64,000 bases of DNA, taken from NCBI GenBank assembly GCA_963752285.1, contig CAVVXN010000005.1:1472001-1536000 (forward strand), given 5' to 3'. Source of the stretch: an uncultured Planctomycetota bacterium. GTDB taxonomy: Bacteria; Planctomycetota; PLA2; JAEUHO01. Under the pieces are notes generated by a model. The model was not told the origin of the DNA, ran no database searches, and saw only the letters and a list, made by a program, of their open reading frames with translations. Made by a program: the position numbers and the translations under genes. Each line of letters begins with the position of its first letter. The stretch's first letter is position 1. Of this stretch, positions 9,349-50,938 are shown piece after piece.

Positions 9349-9788
9349 GTCTCGATCGAGCGGTCGCCCCGGAGCGTGCGCACCGCGAGCCGCACGACGA
9401 GGTCGAGGTCCCGCCCCCGATCGAAGTCGAGCGTGAACCTCTCGGTGCCCTCGGCGAGCCCCGGCGTGAGCGGCACGACCTCGGAGCCCGTGACGAGCCA
9501 CGCGCCGTCCGGCGGCATCACCTCCAGCGCCGCGTTGCCCCCGCGCGGTCCACGCCGCCAGTGGACCTCGACCACCGCGCGGTCCGGCGCGGGCCGGTCC
9601 ACGACCGCCGCGTCGAGCGTCCCGAGGCCGGCGTTCGGCTTTCCGCCGCACGCGAGTCGCACGGGCACGACCGTCGGCCGGCCGTCGTCGATGTGCGTGG
9701 CCGGGCCGGGGCTCCCCGACGCGAGCCCGAGGGGCGCCAGGAGGAGCAAGGGCACGCAGGCGGCGCGCAGGAGAGACGTGGTCGTCAT
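9309..9788 (-). CDS. Hypothetical exported protein
   Basis: ATG at 9788 overlaps the upstream gene's stop (ATGA); signal peptide MTTTSLLRAACVPLLLLAPLGLASG. Confidence 0.65.
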   Translation of the reverse strand: MTTTSLLRAACVPLLLLAPLGLASGSPGPATHIDDGRPTVVPVRLACGGKPNAGLGTLDAAVVDRPAPDRAVVEVHWRRGPRGGNAALEVMPPDGAWLVTGSEVVPLTPGLAEGTERFTLDFDRGRDLDLVVRLAVRTLRGDRSIETYVRLVSAPDSGT

Positions 9789-11410
9789 GGCCCCACCGTC
9801 AGCGTGTAGCCCGCCCGGTTGCCGAGCCCCGAGCAGTTGGCCTCGACGCGCACGAGGTAGTGACCGGCGGCCAGCGAAGTGGGCCCGATCTGCTCCGCCG
9901 CGCTGCCCGCGTTGGCCGAGCGTTGCAGCACCGCGCCGGACGCGTCGAGCAGCGCGAGGTTCAGGTCGTTGCCGCTCCCCGCGATCGGCGAGATGGAGAG
10001 GCCGAAGGCCACCGACGTCTGCTGCGCGAGGTTCAGGCGGTACCAGTGCGTCGCGTCGAGCGCGCGGCACGGGTTCGTCACGGTGGAGTCCACGATGCCC
10101 ACGGACGAGTCGGAGAGGGCGATCGGGGTGGGCCAGACGTCGTCGCCGACGAGGGGATACGTGATCTGCTGGTTCTCGGGCGTTTGGAGCAGCGTCGTGA
10201 CCTCGGCCGAGGAGATCGCGCCCCGCTGGACGAGGCGGTCGAGGAAGAGGCCGACGTACGGCGCGTCCACGCCGGGTACGAACGAGAGGACCGCACCGTA
10301 GAGGTCGCCCACCGGGACCGCCGCCAGGTCGCCGTCGGTGTCGGGGATGCCGCCCGTGCCGTCCGCGAGGTCCCAGACGATCTCGGCGACCGTCTCCTCG
10401 CCCCCGATGCCGCGCACGCTCTGCGGCCAGCTCTCGACGCTCTCGTCGATCTGGGTGCCCCCACTCGTCGTGACCGAGTCGATGTACCGCGCGTCCTTCC
10501 GGCACAGGCTCCCGAACCCCGTCGCCTGCCCCTCGCTCCAGGCGAGGTTCGGCTCGAGGGCCTCGCCGCTGTGCTGGCCGCCCCGGCTCAGCGAGGCCCC
10601 GAGCTGGAACTCCACGAAGTGACCGAACTCGTGCGCGATGACCGGGTCGTCGAAGTAGTCCGTGTCGCTCCCGTCGAGATTGCCCGCCGCGCCGCCGAGC
10701 AGCGTCAGCGAGCGGATGCCGTCGTCGTAGAAGCTCGTGCCGGTGGCACCGTTGTTCCCGAGGCGCGTGTACGCGTGGAGGATGGGCGGCACGATCCCCG
10801 TCGCGGTCCGGACGGTCTCCGTGCACGTGACGAGCACGTCGAGCACGCCGAAGCCGATCGAGGGGCGGCTCGAGGCCGACACGAGGTACGGGACGACGAA
10901 GTCGACGGGCGCGCCCGACCCCGCGGTGAAGGACGGCGACGTCCAGGCAAAGGCGTCCGTGCTCGTGTGGAGGTCGAACGAGGGCGGCAGCGCGTCGTGC
11001 ACCTCGACGCGCCGGAGCGGGTCGTTGTCGGTGCGGCTGAACACGCGCACCTCGAGCTGGCTCCCCGAGGGGGGCGAGGCGACCAGGCTGTACAGGCCGT
11101 TGCTGTCGGTGCTCCCCTTGGCGAAGCAGGTCCCGCCCCCGGCGAGGCCGACCTCGACGTCCGCGAACCGCGCGAGGCGGGTCTCGAGCGAGGGCCCGAG
11201 GCCGGAGTCGTCGAGCGTGAGGCGCTCGTACCGGATCGTGCCCGTGACGGTCGTGTCGGGACCGCCCCCCTGGACGCAGCTGGTGACGGGCGGCGGCGTC
11301 GGGGTGGAGGACGATCCGCCGCCGCCACACGCACCCAACGAGAACACGAACGAGACCACGATCCCCACCGCGCCGAGGCGCGCCGCCCGGACCCGGTCGT
11401 CCGCTCCCAC
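9785..11410 (-). CDS. Secreted lipoprotein metallopeptidase (HExxH) with C-terminal PPC-like domain; start uncertain (GTG 11410 or CTG 11434)
   Basis: Lipobox LGAC-GGGG, VIAHEFGH...LAWSEG, C-terminal DLNLALLD...LAAGHYLVRV. Confidence 0.8.
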   Translation of the reverse strand: MGADDRVRAARLGAVGIVVSFVFSLGACGGGGSSSTPTPPPVTSCVQGGGPDTTVTGTIRYERLTLDDSGLGPSLETRLARFADVEVGLAGGGTCFAKGSTDSNGLYSLVASPPSGSQLEVRVFSRTDNDPLRRVEVHDALPPSFDLHTSTDAFAWTSPSFTAGSGAPVDFVVPYLVSASSRPSIGFGVLDVLVTCTETVRTATGIVPPILHAYTRLGNNGATGTSFYDDGIRSLTLLGGAAGNLDGSDTDYFDDPVIAHEFGHFVEFQLGASLSRGGQHSGEALEPNLAWSEGQATGFGSLCRKDARYIDSVTTSGGTQIDESVESWPQSVRGIGGEETVAEIVWDLADGTGGIPDTDGDLAAVPVGDLYGAVLSFVPGVDAPYVGLFLDRLVQRGAISSAEVTTLLQTPENQQITYPLVGDDVWPTPIALSDSSVGIVDSTVTNPCRALDATHWYRLNLAQQTSVAFGLSISPIAGSGNDLNLALLDASGAVLQRSANAGSAAEQIGPTSLAAGHYLVRVEANCSGLGNRAGYTLTVGP

Positions 11411-11596
11411 GGCCAGGGGACGCGACGTGCTCAGGGACTCCCTCCAGGGCGAAGCGGCCAGCGTACGGCAGCACGCCGCCGAGGGGCGAGCAAGACGCGG
11501 ACCGCCGAACGGCGCCCCCGCCAGGCCCCTCACCCCGCCACCACCCGCCCCCCGTGCGATCCAGCACACCCCCACCACACCCCCCGCGCGCCCCCC

Positions 11597-12102
11597 GCGA
11601 TGCGGCGAAACCAAAGGCAAGCCGCAAGCGCGAGCCCCCAACCCGCAGCCCGCCCCGGTCCCGCCCCCTCCCCCCCGCGATGCGGCGAAGCCAAAGGCGA
11701 GCCGCAAGCACGACCCCCGCCACGCCGCGCCGCCACATCCCGCAAGCCCCCCGCGATGCGGCGAAGCCAAAGGCAAGCCGCGAGCACGACCCCCGCCACG
11801 CCGCGCCGCCAAATCCCGCAAGCCCCCCGCGATGCGGCGAAGCCAAAGGCGAGCCGCGAGCACGACCCCCGCCACGCCGCGCCGCCACATCCCGCAAGCC
11901 CCCCGCGATGCGGCGAAGCCAAAGGCGAGCCGCGAGCACGACCCCCGCCACGCCACGCCACGCCGCGCCGCCACATCCCGCAAGCCCCCCGCGATGCGGC
12001 GAAGCCAAAGGCGAGCCGCGAGCACGCCCCCCCGCCCCGCGCCGCGTCGCGCCATCCCGCAAGCCGCCCGCGATGCGGCGAAGCCAAAGGCGAGCCGCGA
12101 GC
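11597..12102. repeat. Tandem array 1: 7 hairpin units GCGATGCGGCGAAGCCAAAGGCGAGCCGCRAGC, period 76-86 bp
   Basis: Unit starts at 11597, 11677, 11753, 11829, 11905, 11991, 12070; linkers are mostly repeated. Confidence 0.95.
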
Positions 12103-12121
12103 ACGAGCCCCCCCCCGACGC

Positions 12122-12229
12122 GGGGCGGCGCGCGGAGAGGCCAAAGGAGTGGCCCTGACGACGACGCCGCGTGCGAATGCACGCAAGGAGGAGGAAGGGC
12201 CGCGAACTGGCCTCTCCGCGCGCCGCCCC
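12122..12229. repeat. Structured element copy 1 (64-nt core inside a 22-bp perfect inverted repeat)
   Basis: GGGGCGGCGCGCGGAGAGGCCA...TGGCCTCTCCGCGCGCCGCCCC; core differs by 1 nt from copies 2 and 3. Confidence 0.95.
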
Positions 12230-12230
12230 C

Positions 12231-13403
12231 CTAGCCGCCGGCGCCGCTGCCGATGGTCTCGACGAGTTTAAGAAGCGGCAAAAACAACCCCAACACGATC
12301 AAGAACACCGCCCCACCCAAAAAGATGATCAACACCGGCTCGATGATCGACGTGATCGACCCGACCGCGACGTCCACCTCCTCGTCGTAGTTGTCCGCAA
12401 CGCGGATCAGCATCTTGTCGAGCTCGCCGGTCTCCTCGCCGACGTCGATCATGTTCACGACGATGTCGTCGAAGATGCCGCTCTCGCCGAGCGGCTCGGC
12501 GATCGTGCCGCCCTCGGAGATCGAGTCGCGGACCTTGGTGAGCGCGTGGACCATGACCACGTTGCCGGCGGTGTCGCGGCAGATGTCGAGGGCCTCGAGG
12601 ATCGGCACGCCCGACGCGATCAGGGTCCCGAAGGTCCGGCTGAACCGCGCCACGACCACCTTGCGGGCGATCGGGCCGACCACGGGGAGGCGGAGCTTCA
12701 GCCGGTCGAGGAAGCGACGCCCCGGGGCCGTGCGCGCCAGGAACCGGATGCCCATGACGAACAGGATGAGGATCGCACCGAGCACGTACCACTGGTCGAT
12801 CAGGAAGCGGGAGAACGCCTGCAGGGCGCGGGTCAGTGCCGGGAGGTCGCCCGCGCCGGGGAGGCTCTGGAACACCTGTTCGAACTTCGGCACCACGAAG
12901 ATCATGATGAGGAGCAGGATCGAGAGCGTGACCGTGGCGACGACAGAGGGGTAGATCAGCGCACCCTTCACGCGGCGACGCAGGCGCTGCGACTTCTCCA
13001 TGAAGCTCGCGAGGCGGGACAGGATCACGTCGAGCACGCCGCCCGTCTCGCCGGCCTTCACCATGTTCGAGTAGAGGTTGTCGAAGACGGTGCCGTGCTT
13101 CGCCATGGCCTCGGACAGCGGCGACCCGCTCTCGACGTCCTCCGTCACGTCCACCATGACGCTCTTGAAGGGACCGCGGTCCATCTGCCCTTCGAGGATC
13201 TTCAGGCTGCGCACGATCGGGAGGCCGGCGTCCTGCAGGGTCGAGAGCTGCGTCGTGAACTCCGTGAGCGCCCGCTGCGAGACCCGCTCGCGACGGCGGC
13301 GTGCCCGCGCGGGGGCCGGCATCACGGCGGTCGTGGAGCCGCGCGACGGCGTGCCTCGCGTAGCCGTGGCGGACGTCTTCGCTCGGGCGGGGATCTTGGG
13401 CAT
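12231..13403 (-). CDS. pilC: Type IV pilus/T2SS inner-membrane platform protein (PilC/GspF)
   Basis: FTTQLSTLQDAGLPI, NMVKAGETGGVL, RFSRTFGTLIASGVPILEAL, GEETGELDKML. Confidence 0.93.
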   Translation of the reverse strand: MPKIPARAKTSATATRGTPSRGSTTAVMPAPARARRRRERVSQRALTEFTTQLSTLQDAGLPIVRSLKILEGQMDRGPFKSVMVDVTEDVESGSPLSEAMAKHGTVFDNLYSNMVKAGETGGVLDVILSRLASFMEKSQRLRRRVKGALIYPSVVATVTLSILLLIMIFVVPKFEQVFQSLPGAGDLPALTRALQAFSRFLIDQWYVLGAILILFVMGIRFLARTAPGRRFLDRLKLRLPVVGPIARKVVVARFSRTFGTLIASGVPILEALDICRDTAGNVVMVHALTKVRDSISEGGTIAEPLGESGIFDDIVVNMIDVGEETGELDKMLIRVADNYDEEVDVAVGSITSIIEPVLIIFLGGAVFLIVLGLFLPLLKLVETIGSGAGG

Positions 13404-31621: not shown

Positions 31622-32397
31622 CGATCCCCCTCCTCCTTCGCGAGCCGCGCGGCGACCTCCTCGCTCACGTCGAGGTTCGTGGTCACCGACTGCACGTCGT
31701 CGTTCTCCTCGAGGAGCGCCTGGAGGCGCATCACGCTCCGCGCGGTGTCCTCGTCGGCCTCCACGAGCGATCGCGGGCTCATCTCGAGCTCGGCGCTCGA
31801 GGTCTCGATGCCGGCGTCCCCGAGCGCCTGCTTCACGGCCTCGAGATCGGCAACTCCGCAGGTCACGACGAAGCGTCCGCCTTCGTCGCCGAGGTCCTGG
31901 TGGACGACGTCCTCGGCGCCGGCGTCGATCACGACCTCGAGGATCCGTTCCTCGGTGACCTGCTCGTCGGCGATCTCGACGCGCCCGCGGCGCTCGAACA
32001 TCCACGACACGGAGCCGCTCGCGCCGATCCGCCCCCCGTTGCGGTCGAGGGTCGCGCGGATCTCGGGCGCCGTCCGGTTCCGGTTGTCGGTGAGCGCCTC
32101 GATCAGGAGCGCGACCCCGCCGGGCCCGTAGGCCTCGTACGTGACGTCGGCAAACTGGTCCTCGCCCCCCGCGCCCGACGTCTTGTCGATCAGCCGCTGG
32201 ATCGTGTCCTTCGGCATGTTCGCCGCCCGAGCCTTCTCGACGGCGTACTGCAGCTTCAAGTTGTCGCGCAAAGTCGGCCCAGCCTGCTTCACGGCAGCCT
32301 GGATCAACCGCGAGAGCTTGTTGAATTGCTTCCCGCGCTTGACGTCCACGCGCGCCTTCGCCCGCATGATGTTCGCGAAGTGGCTGTGGCCGGCCAT
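31618..32397 (-). CDS. yebC: YebC/PmpR family protein
   Basis: MAGHS...I..K, YEAYGPGGVA, TDNRNRT, GSVSWMFERRG. Confidence 0.96.
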   Translation of the reverse strand: MAGHSHFANIMRAKARVDVKRGKQFNKLSRLIQAAVKQAGPTLRDNLKLQYAVEKARAANMPKDTIQRLIDKTSGAGGEDQFADVTYEAYGPGGVALLIEALTDNRNRTAPEIRATLDRNGGRIGASGSVSWMFERRGRVEIADEQVTEERILEVVIDAGAEDVVHQDLGDEGGRFVVTCGVADLEAVKQALGDAGIETSSAELEMSPRSLVEADEDTARSVMRLQALLEENDDVQSVTTNLDVSEEVAARLAKEEGDR

Positions 32398-32440
32398 GAC
32401 CCATCATGATACCGCCGGCCCCCTTCCCCACCGCCCCCCC

Positions 32441-33066
32441 GCGACGCGGCGCCGCCCAAGGCGGCCCCGCAAGCGCACGCCCCCCCGCGCGATGCGGCGC
32501 CGCCAAAGGCGGCCCCGCGAGCCCACGCCCCCTCCGCGCGATGCGGCGCCGCCAAAGGCGGCCCCGCGAGCCCCCCATCGCCACACGCGACGCGGCGAGG
32601 CCGAAGGCCGACGCCGCAAGCGCACGCCCCCTCCGCGCGACGCGGCGCCGCCAAAGGCGGCCCCGCGAGCCCCCCATCGCCACACGCGACGCGGCGAGGC
32701 CGAAGGCCGACGCCGCAAGCGCACGCCCCCTCCGCGCGACGCGGCGCCGCCCAAGGCGGCCCCGCGAGCCCCCCATCGCCACACGCGACGCGGCGAGGCC
32801 GAAGGCCGACGCCGCAAGCGCACGCCCCCTCCGCGCGACGCGGCGCCGCCCAAGGCGGCCCCGCGAGCCCCCCATCGCCACACGCGACGCGGCGAGGCCG
32901 AAGGCCGACGCCGCAAGCGCACGCCCCCTCCGCGCGACGCGGCGCCGCCAAAGGCGGCCCCGCGAGCCCCCCATCGCCGCACGCGACGCGGCGAGGCCGA
33001 AGGCCGACGCCGCAAGCGCACGCCCCCTCCGCGCGACGCGGCGCCGCCCAAGGCGGCCCCGCGAGC
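32441..33066. repeat. Tandem array 2: 13 hairpin units of two alternating types (A, B), 99-bp AB period
   Basis: A=GCGAYGCGGCGCCGCCMAAGGCGGCCCCGCRAGC (8 copies); B=GCGACGCGGCGAGGCCGAAGGCCGACGCCGCAAGC (5 copies at 32587, 32686, 32785, 32884, 32983). Confidence 0.95.
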
Positions 33067-33092
33067 CCCCCCGCCCAACCGCCCGCACGCGA

Positions 33093-33194
33093 CCGGCGCG
33101 CTGAGAGGCCAAAGGAGTGGCCATGACGACGACGCCGCGTGCGAATGCACGCAAGGAGGAGGAAGGGCCGCGAACTGGCCTCTCAGCGCGCCGG
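33093..33194. repeat. Structured element copy 2 (64-nt core inside a 19-bp perfect inverted repeat)
   Basis: CCGGCGCGCTGAGAGGCCA...TGGCCTCTCAGCGCGCCGG. Confidence 0.95.
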
Positions 33195-33196
33195 GC

Positions 33197-33595
33197 CTAG
33201 CGCTTGGAGAATTGGAAGCGGGCCCTGGCACCACGCTGGCCGTACTTCTTCCGCTCCTTGGCCCGCGCGTCGCGGGTCAGGTAGCCGGCGCTCCGCAGCG
33301 AACCCTCGAACGTCGGGTTCGCGCTCGCGAGCGCGCGGGCGAGGCCGTGCCGGACCGCGTCCGCCTGGCCCTGGACGCCGCCGCCGCGGACGGAGACGTG
33401 GACGTCGTAGCTCGAGTCCGTACCGGTGAGCCGGAGGGGCTGACGGACGGCGAGGCGTGCGGCGTGCGTGGGGAAGTGCTCGCTCCAGTCGCGACGGTTC
33501 ACCGTCATCTGGCCCGAGCCGGACATGATCCGGACCCGCGCGACCGCCTTCTTCCGGCGGCCCACTCCGCGCACGAACTCCGATCGCTCCACCAT
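33197..33595 (-). CDS. rpsI: 30S ribosomal protein S9
   Basis: GRRKKAVARV, GGG..GQADAVRHG, LTRDAR.KERKKYG, QFSKR. Confidence 0.98.
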   Translation of the reverse strand: MVERSEFVRGVGRRKKAVARVRIMSGSGQMTVNRRDWSEHFPTHAARLAVRQPLRLTGTDSSYDVHVSVRGGGVQGQADAVRHGLARALASANPTFEGSLRSAGYLTRDARAKERKKYGQRGARARFQFSKR

Positions 33596-49640: not shown

Positions 49641-49975
49641 GGCAATTCAGCGTCTCGACACGCCGTCGTAAGTATCTGCCACACAATCACTTGTGAATGC
49701 GAACGGATACGATACACAACCGTGCGTGACACCCAGATTCGTGTGGAATCGCTGTGGAGCGAAGCCGCAAGTCGCGAGGCGACAACGGGTTGCGAGGGCG
49801 GCACGACCGTCGGGTCACGCAGCGCCCCGCGGGCCCGCGCCGGGTGGGCCCGAGGCGGCCCGCGGCTTCGCCGGGGCCGACGCGGAGCGTGCGGGCGACC
49901 GGCCGGCGGCGCGTCGGCGCCGGCGCGCGCTCGGCCGGTGTTCGGCCTCCCTCCCCCGCCGCCGTACCATCCCGA

Positions 49976-50107
49976 CCCCGCGCGCGCGAGGACGGTCACG
50001 CCCTGGAGGGTCGGACGGCCCGAACCGGGTCAGGTCCGGAAGGAAGCAGCCCTAAGGGTTCGACCCGACGTCTCCCGGTCCCCGTGACCGTCCTCCCGGG
50101 CGCGGGG
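49976..50107 (+). ncRNA. ffs: Signal recognition particle RNA (4.5S)
   Basis: Domain IV motif GTCAGGTCCGGAAGGAAGCAGC; closing stem GAGGACGGTCACG/CGTGACCGTCCTC; -10-like TACCAT at 49965. Confidence 0.95.
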
Positions 50108-50205
50108 CGCTGAGGGGCCAGTTCGCGGCCCTTCCTCCTCCTTGCGTGCATTCGCACGCGGCGTCGTCGTCATGGCCACTCCTTTGGCCCCTCAGCGCCC
50201 CGCGC
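50100..50205. repeat. Structured element copy 3 (inverted relative to copies 1 and 2; 21-bp perfect inverted repeat)
   Basis: GCGCGGGGCGCTGAGGGGCCA...TGGCCCCTCAGCGCCCCGCGC; core is the exact reverse complement of copy 2. Confidence 0.95.
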
Positions 50206-50226
50206 CGCGCGTGGGGTGGGGCGGGG

Positions 50227-50456
50227 GCTCGCGGCTTCGGCCTTCGGCCTTGCCGCGTCGCGGGGTGGGCGGGCGGCTCGCGGCTTCGGCCTTCGGCCTT
50301 GCCGCGTCGCGGGGTGGGCGCGGGGCTCGCGGCTTCGGCCTTCGGCCTTGCCGCGTCGCGGGGCCGGCGCGGGGCTCGCGGCTTCGGCCTTCGGCCTTGC
50401 CGCGTCGCGGGGTGGGCGGGGGCTCGCGGCTTCGGCCTTCGGCCTTGCCGCGTCGC
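50227..50456. repeat. Tandem array 3: 5 identical 35-nt hairpin units, period 48-49 bp
   Basis: GCTCGCGGCTTCGGCCTTCGGCCTTGCCGCGTCGC at 50227, 50276, 50325, 50374, 50422 with G-rich 13-14 nt linkers. Confidence 0.95.
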
Positions 50457-50491
50457 GGGGCGGGGGCGGGGCGGGGGGGCGGGAGTGGGGG

Positions 50492-50938
50492 TTAGTCGCG
50501 AACGAGGTTGGGCGTGCCGTCTTTTCGCGCTTTGAAGATCCGGGTGCGGATCTCCATCACGCGGCCCTTGACGCGCGGGTGCTCTTGGAGGACGGCCTCG
50601 GTCTTTTGGAAGAAGGTCGGGCGGAGTTCTCGGATCTTGGGGAGGTGTTCCTCGACCACGGCGTACGTGAAGAGGCCTTCGTCGCAGGCGTCGAGGTAGA
50701 CGTCGGGGTGCAGCATCCCGCGCACGACGAAGGACGCCGCGAGCTCCCAGTAGCCGACGACCTGCCGCAGGTACGCGTTCTGCGGGTGGTCGTGGGCCAG
50801 GATCGGCTGGATCTCCTCCCAGCTCTTGAGGAAGAGCTGGTTCGCGACCATGTCGCGCGCCTCGCGCAGGCGCGCCTCGCGTCGCAGCTCGTAGAGCTTC
50901 ATCGCGATCCACGCGTCGCGCATGCCGGGTCGTCGCAT
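50492..50938 (-). CDS. Conserved hypothetical protein (DUF4760-like)
   Basis: KLYELRRE..LREAR...RQVVGYWELAAS.V..G; GGAGG RBS. Confidence 0.75.
   Translation of the reverse strand: MRRPGMRDAWIAMKLYELRREARLREARDMVANQLFLKSWEEIQPILAHDHPQNAYLRQVVGYWELAASFVVRGMLHPDVYLDACDEGLFTYAVVEEHLPKIRELRPTFFQKTEAVLQEHPRVKGRVMEIRTRIFKARKDGTPNLVRD

Follow-up and report, generated by a model that had tools for sequence, protein, structure and literature searches.

The 64,000-nt window analyzed here (G000:C5:1472001-1536000) is the whole stretch of DNA under study. It belongs to a metagenome-assembled genome of an uncultured Planctomycetota bacterium, labelled G000, which is 4.64 Mb in five contigs with 73% GC and an estimated completeness of 89%. 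Three copies of a repeated element are found in the window. Each consists of a module of ~97 nt that forms a long hairpin, with a tandem array on one side. The genes that flank this element carry a real and recently acquired excess of silent T on one strand, i.e., the gene-sense strand of the element, which is also the G-rich strand of the array and is termed E+ here. This excess may be the natural footprint of local, strand-specific mutation.

T-type silent codons are TTG, TTA and every NNT codon that has a synonymous NNC. All gene-based statistics rest on home-made gene calls, a set of 3332 genes from a codon log-odds caller that covers 85% of the genome. Analyses of 3' ends need stop codons only, and the 5' ends are approximate.

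Silent-codon patches and their strand polarity

The pilC-like gene (positions 12231–13403, minus strand; Pfam T2SSF, E = 3e-63) encodes an inner-membrane platform protein, and its TAG stop abuts the module, 6 nt from the blastn match. Codons -12 to -33 from the stop (12267–12332, minus strand) form a T-rich patch with six TTG, two TTT, two CTT and a GGT, plus AAA. The gene has 11 T-type and no A-type codons in a stretch of 25, which places its maximum in the top eight of the 3332 genes. Its T-type background is low (5.1%), unlike that of most other top-cluster genes. The yebC gene (Pfam YebC) has a T-type patch at codons 24–56 (32230–32328, minus strand), in which codons 31–56 hold seven T-type codons (TTG, GCT, GCT, ACT, TTG, TTG and GCT). 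The third gene is next to the inverted copy of the element and encodes a DUF4760 protein (50492–50938, minus strand; Pfam DUF4760). The patch at its 3' end (50501–50650, minus strand) is of A-type, which reads as T on the plus strand, and codons 97–139 include eight A-type codons (GAA, CGA, GAA, CAA, CAA, AAA, CGA and AAA).

The codons in these patches have a background of 2.5–8% of their synonymous sets. Shares within each set, determined from 1367 long training open reading frames, are 2.5% of Leu for TTG, 2.6% of Leu for CTT, 2.6% of Phe for TTT, 2.6% of Lys for AAA, 4.9% of Gln for CAA, 8.2% of Glu for GAA and 6.8% of Arg for CGA. Two other flanks in the window are weak. A lipoprotein-like gene with a weak PPC-domain match (9785–11410, minus strand) has TTG GGT GCG TGT at 11330–11345 in its 5' part, but with three T-type codons in codons 21–40 this patch is not significant alone. 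The ribosomal protein S9 gene (33197–33595, minus strand), whose TAG stop is followed by the second module copy, has two T-type codons in its last 20 and three in its last 40. An earlier note on this DNA had quoted such codons at pilC, at the lipoprotein-like gene (there termed a peptidase), at yebC and at the gene beside the inverted copy; all of them are present, far beyond chance. It placed the footprint beside all of the elements, which is borne out at the pilC, yebC and DUF4760 genes and is weak at the peptidase side and the S9 flank.

A promoter embedded in the pilC patch was considered and dropped after an empty sigma-70 scan. Scans of 11300–12700 and 49900–50800 for sigma-70 promoter and intrinsic-terminator consensus sequences gave no match.

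Substitutions were polarized with orthologues for the pilC, yebC and DUF4760 genes only, because relatives are 67–78% identical in protein sequence and their C/G third positions are saturated. The pilC tail in relatives has the same amino acids, encoded by CTG, CTC, TTC and GGC. Twenty-nine relatives were fetched and 28 are readable; 27 of the 28 have fewer than 11 T-type codons in the last 45, 14 have none, and the same-genus orthologue has one. The sole relative that exceeds the pilC count is a locus of 59% GC. The module is not seen in the 110 nt downstream of the pilC orthologues in the 28 readable relatives. In 13 yebC orthologues, codons 31, 34, 39, 47 and 56 mostly end in C or G (CTG/CTC, GCG/GCC and similar), and GAA, CAA and AAA at codons 97, 104, 111, 118, 136 and 139 of the DUF4760 gene correspond to GAG, CAG and AAG in the same-genus orthologue. 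Because the orthologues keep the amino acids with C- or G-ending codons, the three patches are, judged from these alignments, a derived state. The proteins are intact, as the earlier note had stated: in pilC, neither the AAA nor any of the 11 T-type changes alters an amino acid, and the amino acids of yebC and DUF4760 are kept.

The polarity extends through the genome. There are 26 module copies by blastn, and in 21 of these a called gene ends -10 to +34 nt from the module, in one orientation only, i.e., gene, hairpin, array. The last 20 codons of these 21 upstream genes are 12.6% T-type compared with 4.4% in all other genes, and 6.2% A-type compared with 4.3%. There is no T-type excess beyond 40 codons from the stop. 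Summed over the last 40 codons, T-type codons number 74 where 33.8 are expected (resampling P = 7e-5); if the two strongest loci are left out, 54 versus 30.6 remain (P = 0.005). A-type codons sum to 32 versus 30.7. In relation to 729 control genes that are followed by a gap of 150 nt or more, the T-type count is 2.52 versus 1.07 (P = 8e-7) and the A-type count 1.24 versus 0.95 (P = 0.13). The difference is pronounced in codons 10–30 from the stop, with T-type at 2.71 versus 0.96 in controls (P = 8e-7) and A-type at 0.57 versus 0.82; two or more T-type codons are present there in 15 of 21 loci and in 22% of controls.

Genes on the array side follow the same strand. Over 80 codons, nine convergent genes have more A-type (4.67 versus 2.92, P = 0.017) and fewer T-type codons (1.44 versus 3.63, P = 0.009), whereas thirteen co-directional genes have more T-type (5.15 versus 3.22, P = 0.0017) and not more A-type codons (1.92 versus 2.48). 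Thus silent T is raised and silent A is not raised on E+ in upstream, co-directional and convergent flanks. The claim that the polarity flips with the orientation of the element, and follows the G-rich array strand and not the gene strand, holds genome-wide by locus.

Gene ends that lack the element, as represented by the long-gap controls and by three further intergenic repeat families (families 2, 3 and 4, with 30, 10 and 8 loci), do not have the footprint. The idea that repeats or long spacers produce it in general was rejected on this basis. Genes adjoining another repeat, family 0 (88 loci), are GC-poor throughout and not locally, and intergenic regions outside the module family that have strong GC skew are associated with a shift of at most +0.09. 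Array-type sequence without a module is present in seventeen short intergenic regions; the 3' gene ends facing them have 1.40 A-type codons versus 0.84, and 0.52 T-type codons versus 1.00, per 20 codons.

A wider change in third-position composition accompanies the T excess. The E+ skew of G over C reaches ~80 codons past the arrays. The genome baseline of this skew is about -0.10 in co-directional and +0.09 in convergent genes. Co-directional genes at the arrays have +0.07 in codons 0–20, +0.13 in codons 20–40, -0.02 in codons 40–80 and -0.11 to -0.17 beyond, and convergent genes have +0.30, +0.17 and +0.23 in the same intervals and about +0.02 to +0.05 beyond. In 17 of 20 array-side genes, of both orientations, the skew in codons 0–80 exceeds that in codons 120–280 (Wilcoxon P = 1e-4). 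When the comparison is limited to four-fold sites and omits the first 10 codons, the near skew is +0.142 and the far skew -0.056, and 15 of 20 genes are positive (P = 0.0027). The observed difference of 0.198 compares with a resampling null from all long genes with a mean of -0.007 and a standard deviation of 0.039. Four-fold T on E+ is approximately doubled near the arrays (57 of 966 sites versus 56 of 1923) and four-fold A is not (23 of 966 versus 37 of 1923). Within 20 arrays, variants from the unit consensus include 47 C>T on E+ (17.9 per 1000 C) and 14 G>A (3.5 per 1000 G).

Beyond the array, in the presumed direction of transcription, the footprint reaches ~240 bp, and behind the hairpin it reaches ~30–110 bp. 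The earlier note gave a range of roughly 100–250 bp; the decay seen here is within ~30–240 bp. Its assignment of the change to the E+ strand agrees with the rise in T, but not in the form of a plain C>T change, since G rises too.

The most extreme internal clusters of the genome are found in a long gene that ends in a module (C1:748528-752121). In one, at codon 770, 16 of 25 codons are T-type; in the other, at codon 629, 15 of 25 are A-type. Both are 1.2–1.7 kb from the module.

The hairpin module, its arrays and related genomes

The module has a fold energy of -86 to -91 kcal/mol, with z-scores of -8.7 to -10. Its termini are inverted repeats. Copy 1 is at positions 12129–12225 on the minus strand, which is both the pilC sense strand and E+, and is followed by an array at 11583–12122 with a period of 76 and 6.9 copies. 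Copy 2 (33097–33193, minus strand) starts 4 nt past the TAG stop of the S9 gene, and its array (32440–33071) has a period of 99 and 6.4 copies. Both arrays are G-rich on the minus strand. Copy 3 (50103–50198) is inverted, so that E+ is the plus strand; its array with a G-run tail (50204–50491) is G-rich on the plus strand and has a period of 49 with 5.5 copies to position 50472. This copy begins 16 nt past a signal recognition particle (SRP) RNA gene (49993–50087, plus strand; Rfam RF00169, 48.7 bits), and the element is thus also found behind a non-coding RNA gene. At gathering thresholds, Rfam has matches in the window to tRNA and SRP RNA only, with nothing for the module or the arrays.

Arrays are 180–780 nt in length, and the 20 that can be parsed have an E+ composition of ~50% G, 33% C, 15% T and 2% A. 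The five module copies that do not follow a called gene comprise two extra tandem copies, one inverted partner, one diverged copy (81% identity) and copy 3 of the window. Three tandem modules with a spacing of ~183 nt are present at C5:1771539-1771999, and two modules are inverted around one array at C1:410952-411622.

Over 23 aligned modules, the 33 stem pairs comprise 683 Watson-Crick cells, 48 G.U pairs on E+ and 6 A.C pairs; the A.C pairs would be G.U on the opposite strand. The stems have many compensatory changes, including paired C>G and G>C. In the 26 genomic copies the outer stem is variable and co-varies. This pattern of pairing fits an RNA hairpin in the 3' untranslated region (UTR) of the upstream gene, although a C>T bias on E+ would yield the same asymmetry of G.U and A.C pairs. 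The element is a 3'-UTR-type repeat, with a stable hairpin directly after the stop and then a tandem array. The invariant inner core contains CCTTCCTCCTCCTT on E+, which is a strong Shine-Dalgarno-like AAGGAGGAGGAAGG on the opposite strand.

The inner core (module positions 27–73) is ~80–87% identical in other genera of the same family. Matches to the core are present in 11 of 41 genomes searched, with 22 in G001, a genome of the same genus, and 18 in the related genome G008. In the other genera there are too few module copies for replication. In G001 a related element is directly after TAG in 13 of 15 cases, with the hairpin ~65 nt further on. No arrays are seen in the G001 element flanks inspected. 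T-type codons make up 6.7% of the last 20 codons of the 15 genes compared with 3–6% further in, and the convergent genes have no A excess. In G008 the hairpin starts 3–12 nt past the stop in 10 of 11 loci and 37 nt in the other, and the neighboring stop is TAG in 10 of 11. There is no G-skewed array at four inspected G008 loci and no T-enrichment in the 11 genes, where codons 10–20 are 3.6% T-type. Among the three genomes compared, the T-enrichment is confined to the one that bears arrays. A search with the exact module-core pattern gave 0 loci in genome contigs and 0 in metagenome contigs, and a looser pattern gave one metagenome contig of 1.7 kb; no independent array-bearing relative was obtained.

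Stops that adjoin the module in G000 are TAG in 8 cases, TAA in 3 and TGA in 10, compared with a genome usage of 24%, 1.5% and 74.5%. Several of the TGA stops are within the module's own GCTGAG. Taken over the three genomes, the TAG and TAA pattern suggests a TA or TAG target, or a stop codon supplied by the element. No target-site duplication is visible by eye in the module flanks, where the array fills one side; no formal search was made.

A second layer of codon bias is found immediately beside the hairpin. It was analyzed in the 15 loci at which the gene stops before the module begins, with the last 10 codons and codons 10–20 treated separately. In the last 10 codons, four-fold G falls to 0.08 (controls 0.41) and four-fold C rises to 0.78 (0.48), and four-fold T is 0.08 (0.06). 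In codons 10–20 the values are 0.33 for G (0.43), 0.42 for C (0.48) and 0.22 for T (0.05). Two-fold C/T sites have T in 0 of 43 cases in the last 10 codons (0.095 in controls) and in 9 of 34 in codons 10–20 (0.066), while two-fold A/G sites have A in 9 of 21 (0.11) and in 3 of 23 (0.09), respectively. T-type codons overall are 4% in the last 10 codons (controls 5.9%) and 23% in codons 10–20 (4.8%). Across all 21 upstream genes, the last 10 codons have a third-position G count of 2.14 versus 4.09 (P = 3e-7). CTG is absent among the 44 Leu codons of the last 20 codons, where controls have 28%. A weaker version is present in G008, with four-fold G at 0.25 in the last 10 codons versus 0.445 further in. 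As G008 has the hairpin and no arrays, this avoidance of G is probably a separate constraint at the RNA level.

Mutation or selection as the source of the T excess

Strand-asymmetric mutation on a displaced E+ strand is the explanation that is tentatively favored over selection on the transcript, with a likelihood put somewhat short of even. A single signature, anchored to the orientation of the element, spans arrays, the 5' ends of sense genes, the 3' ends of antisense genes and the ends of upstream genes. The T-ending codons that rise are disfavored ones, the pattern is seen only in the array-bearing genome, and its reach is longer in the presumed direction of transcription. In this mechanism, transcription from the upstream gene would continue through the hairpin and the G-rich array. 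Such transcription is suggested by the constant gene-to-hairpin orientation and by the 48:6 ratio of G.U to A.C pairs. The G-rich RNA would re-anneal to the C-rich template in an R-loop, and G-quadruplexes might form on the strand thus displaced. E+ would then be single-stranded more often, and its cytosines would deaminate to uracil and be read as T, while the template strand would be protected. R-loop formation and deamination are here presumed steps, of the kind that the earlier note had proposed in naming single-strand exposure (by an R-loop, G4, or nicking and repair) and cytosine deamination. Purifying selection would remove amino-acid changes so that the bias is recorded at silent sites only, and sites able to do so would drift to G, a GC-ending state that is safe from deamination. 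A broader statement is somewhat more doubtful: that in a wild bacterium the transcribed G-rich arrays raise mutation locally and on one strand through persistent R-loop or G-quadruplex exposure, with the silent sites of pilC, yebC, ribosomal and other conserved genes rewritten over 30–240 bp.

Several observations weigh against a mutational origin. The lost C is mostly replaced by G and not by T, so that a deamination model needs an additional mutation-selection argument. The pilC patch keeps all four of its ATC codons while 8 of the 9 Leu codons among the final 39 codons are changed, a pattern that a context-free deamination model does not predict, and the local rate would have to rise very strongly to saturate this gene end. 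Effect size and array length are uncorrelated (Spearman -0.31, P = 0.19). The 30 nt beside the hairpin carry the reverse bias, with G lost and C not. Tolerance of G.U pairs in a functional RNA could explain the asymmetries of the arrays and stems. Moreover, all statistics come from one metagenome-assembled genome and ~20 loci, and the zones and fine partitions were set after inspection of the data, so the P values are nominal.

Selection on the transcript is less likely as the main cause, but it could account for much of this pattern. It would have molded the flanks to allow proper folding or action of the 3'-UTR hairpin and array. C may be avoided in E+ RNA near the G-rich segments, against mis-pairing or Rho loading on read-through. 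The opposite-sense RNA, C-rich and G-poor in the array and at the 3' ends of convergent genes, and the likewise C-rich and G-poor last 30 nt may be Rho-loading or unstructured regions before a pause hairpin. Rare T-ending codons at 10–30 before the stop could slow ribosomes that approach the stop-codon hairpin. In favor of selection, the zones have sharp limits and specific positions with respect to the hairpin. A common sense signature is seen in convergent genes and in the last 10 codons of upstream genes: C is up, G is down and T is not raised, with A at two-fold A/G sites at 0.30 in the former and 0.43 in the latter; four-fold G goes mostly to C and not to A, as would be expected from the best choice of G-free codons. 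The recurrence of G avoidance in the array-less G008 (0.25 versus 0.445) is in keeping with this, as are the compensatory changes and the 48:6 G.U/A.C count, which point to a hairpin kept as a structure in the gene sense. In terms of a Rho terminator, the C-rich, G-poor stretch before the hairpin is only ~30 nt on the upstream side; the array and the ends of convergent genes, each read in its own sense, are rich in C as well. Against a selective origin, one E+ signature (G over C and T over A) in four kinds of sequence would need several separate selective reasons. Disfavored T-ending codons are up two- to five-fold despite the availability of G-ending four-fold alternatives, and the patches have no sigma-70-type promoter or intrinsic-terminator consensus.

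It is improbable that the footprint predates the element, i.e., that insertion took place beside gene ends that were already AT-rich or at TA-containing stops. The stop codons next to the module (TAG 8, TAA 3, TGA 10 against 24%, 1.5% and 74.5%), the TAG at 13 of 15 elements in G001 and 10 of 11 in G008, and terminal inverted repeats that resemble a miniature transposable element are in favor of a target preference. Yet the patches are derived in this lineage and extremes such as pilC are rare in the genome. The G001 and G008 elements are at the same type of site without T-enrichment, and a palindromic TA target does not explain an oriented skew that extends 240 bp beyond an array of 300–800 nt. 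Metagenome consensus errors near repeats, or bias in the home-made gene calls, are a very improbable source of the pattern. The assembly is metagenomic and 89% complete, and gene starts are approximate. Unitigs of two public runs match 12291–12441 and 12316–12466 without a difference; these are 2–3x deep, yield no usable polymorphism, possibly derive from the source sample, and barely cover 12240–12290. The best public runs contain fractions of 0.33 and 0.30 of the words sampled, and RNA runs ~0.06–0.07. Because the pilC changes are all silent and the unitigs identical, an assembly error is unlikely, though read support of 2–3x is shallow. The conserved protein sequence is kept, the 3'-end analyses use stop codons alone, and the skew persists at four-fold sites without the first 10 codons.

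Significance and comparison with known systems

If the excess is mutational, it provides a sequence-only readout of strand-specific DNA exposure at an R-loop-prone or non-B-DNA repeat in an uncultured bacterium. An intergenic repeat would then locally override the force that holds third-position GC above 90%, and the role of R-loops and G-quadruplexes in bacterial genome evolution would become directly testable at the scale of single genes. Should the arrays be a local mutator, the flanks would naturally document the sites and the strand at which DNA becomes single-stranded in vivo. If selection is responsible, a 3'-UTR hairpin with its array would impose an unusually strong, position-specific constraint on silent sites, which bears on annotation, codon-usage models and the REP-like regulation of neighboring genes. 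In either case, clusters of rare codons at gene ends in GC-rich genomes can mark structured repeats and not horizontal transfer. The full-text literature search yielded general papers only and no description of an element-centered silent-site footprint in bacteria.

Strand-asymmetric deamination and R-loop-linked skew are generally established. Transcription-associated, strand-asymmetric cytosine deamination and R-loop-linked GC skew are a topic of reviews (PMC10030826, PMC2031905). The present pattern is similar in that T replaces part of the C on what is presumed to be the non-template or displaced strand, and in that the skew of G over C and T over A is tied to one strand whatever the orientation of the gene affected. 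The G-rich RNA would be of a type expected to form R-loops, and the effect extends along the presumed direction of transcription. It differs in being local (tens to ~240 bp) and centered on a repeat, where the known skews involve whole genes or replichores. It also crosses into convergent genes on their template strand, and it is near saturation at one gene end, that of pilC.

The repetitive extragenic palindromic sequences and bacterial interspersed mosaic elements (REP/BIME) of enterobacteria are palindromes of 3' UTRs that stabilize upstream mRNA and attenuate transcription with Rho; when they are very near a stop codon they interfere with translation termination. We know of no flanking codon footprint for REP/BIME, and none was found in the literature search. 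The present element resembles them as a multi-copy, stable hairpin directly after stop codons in one orientation. As in REP/BIME, mosaics with further small hairpin repeats occur and structure is kept by compensatory change. The module is longer (~97 nt) than those of REP/BIME, has an inner core that is conserved across genera, and is followed by long, strongly G-skewed tandem arrays. There are also similarities to miniature inverted-repeat transposable elements such as the Correia elements, i.e., a length of ~100 nt, terminal inverted repeats, and dozens of copies beside genes at TA-containing sites. Unlike these, the element described here has a fixed orientation to its upstream gene and a tandem array on one side.

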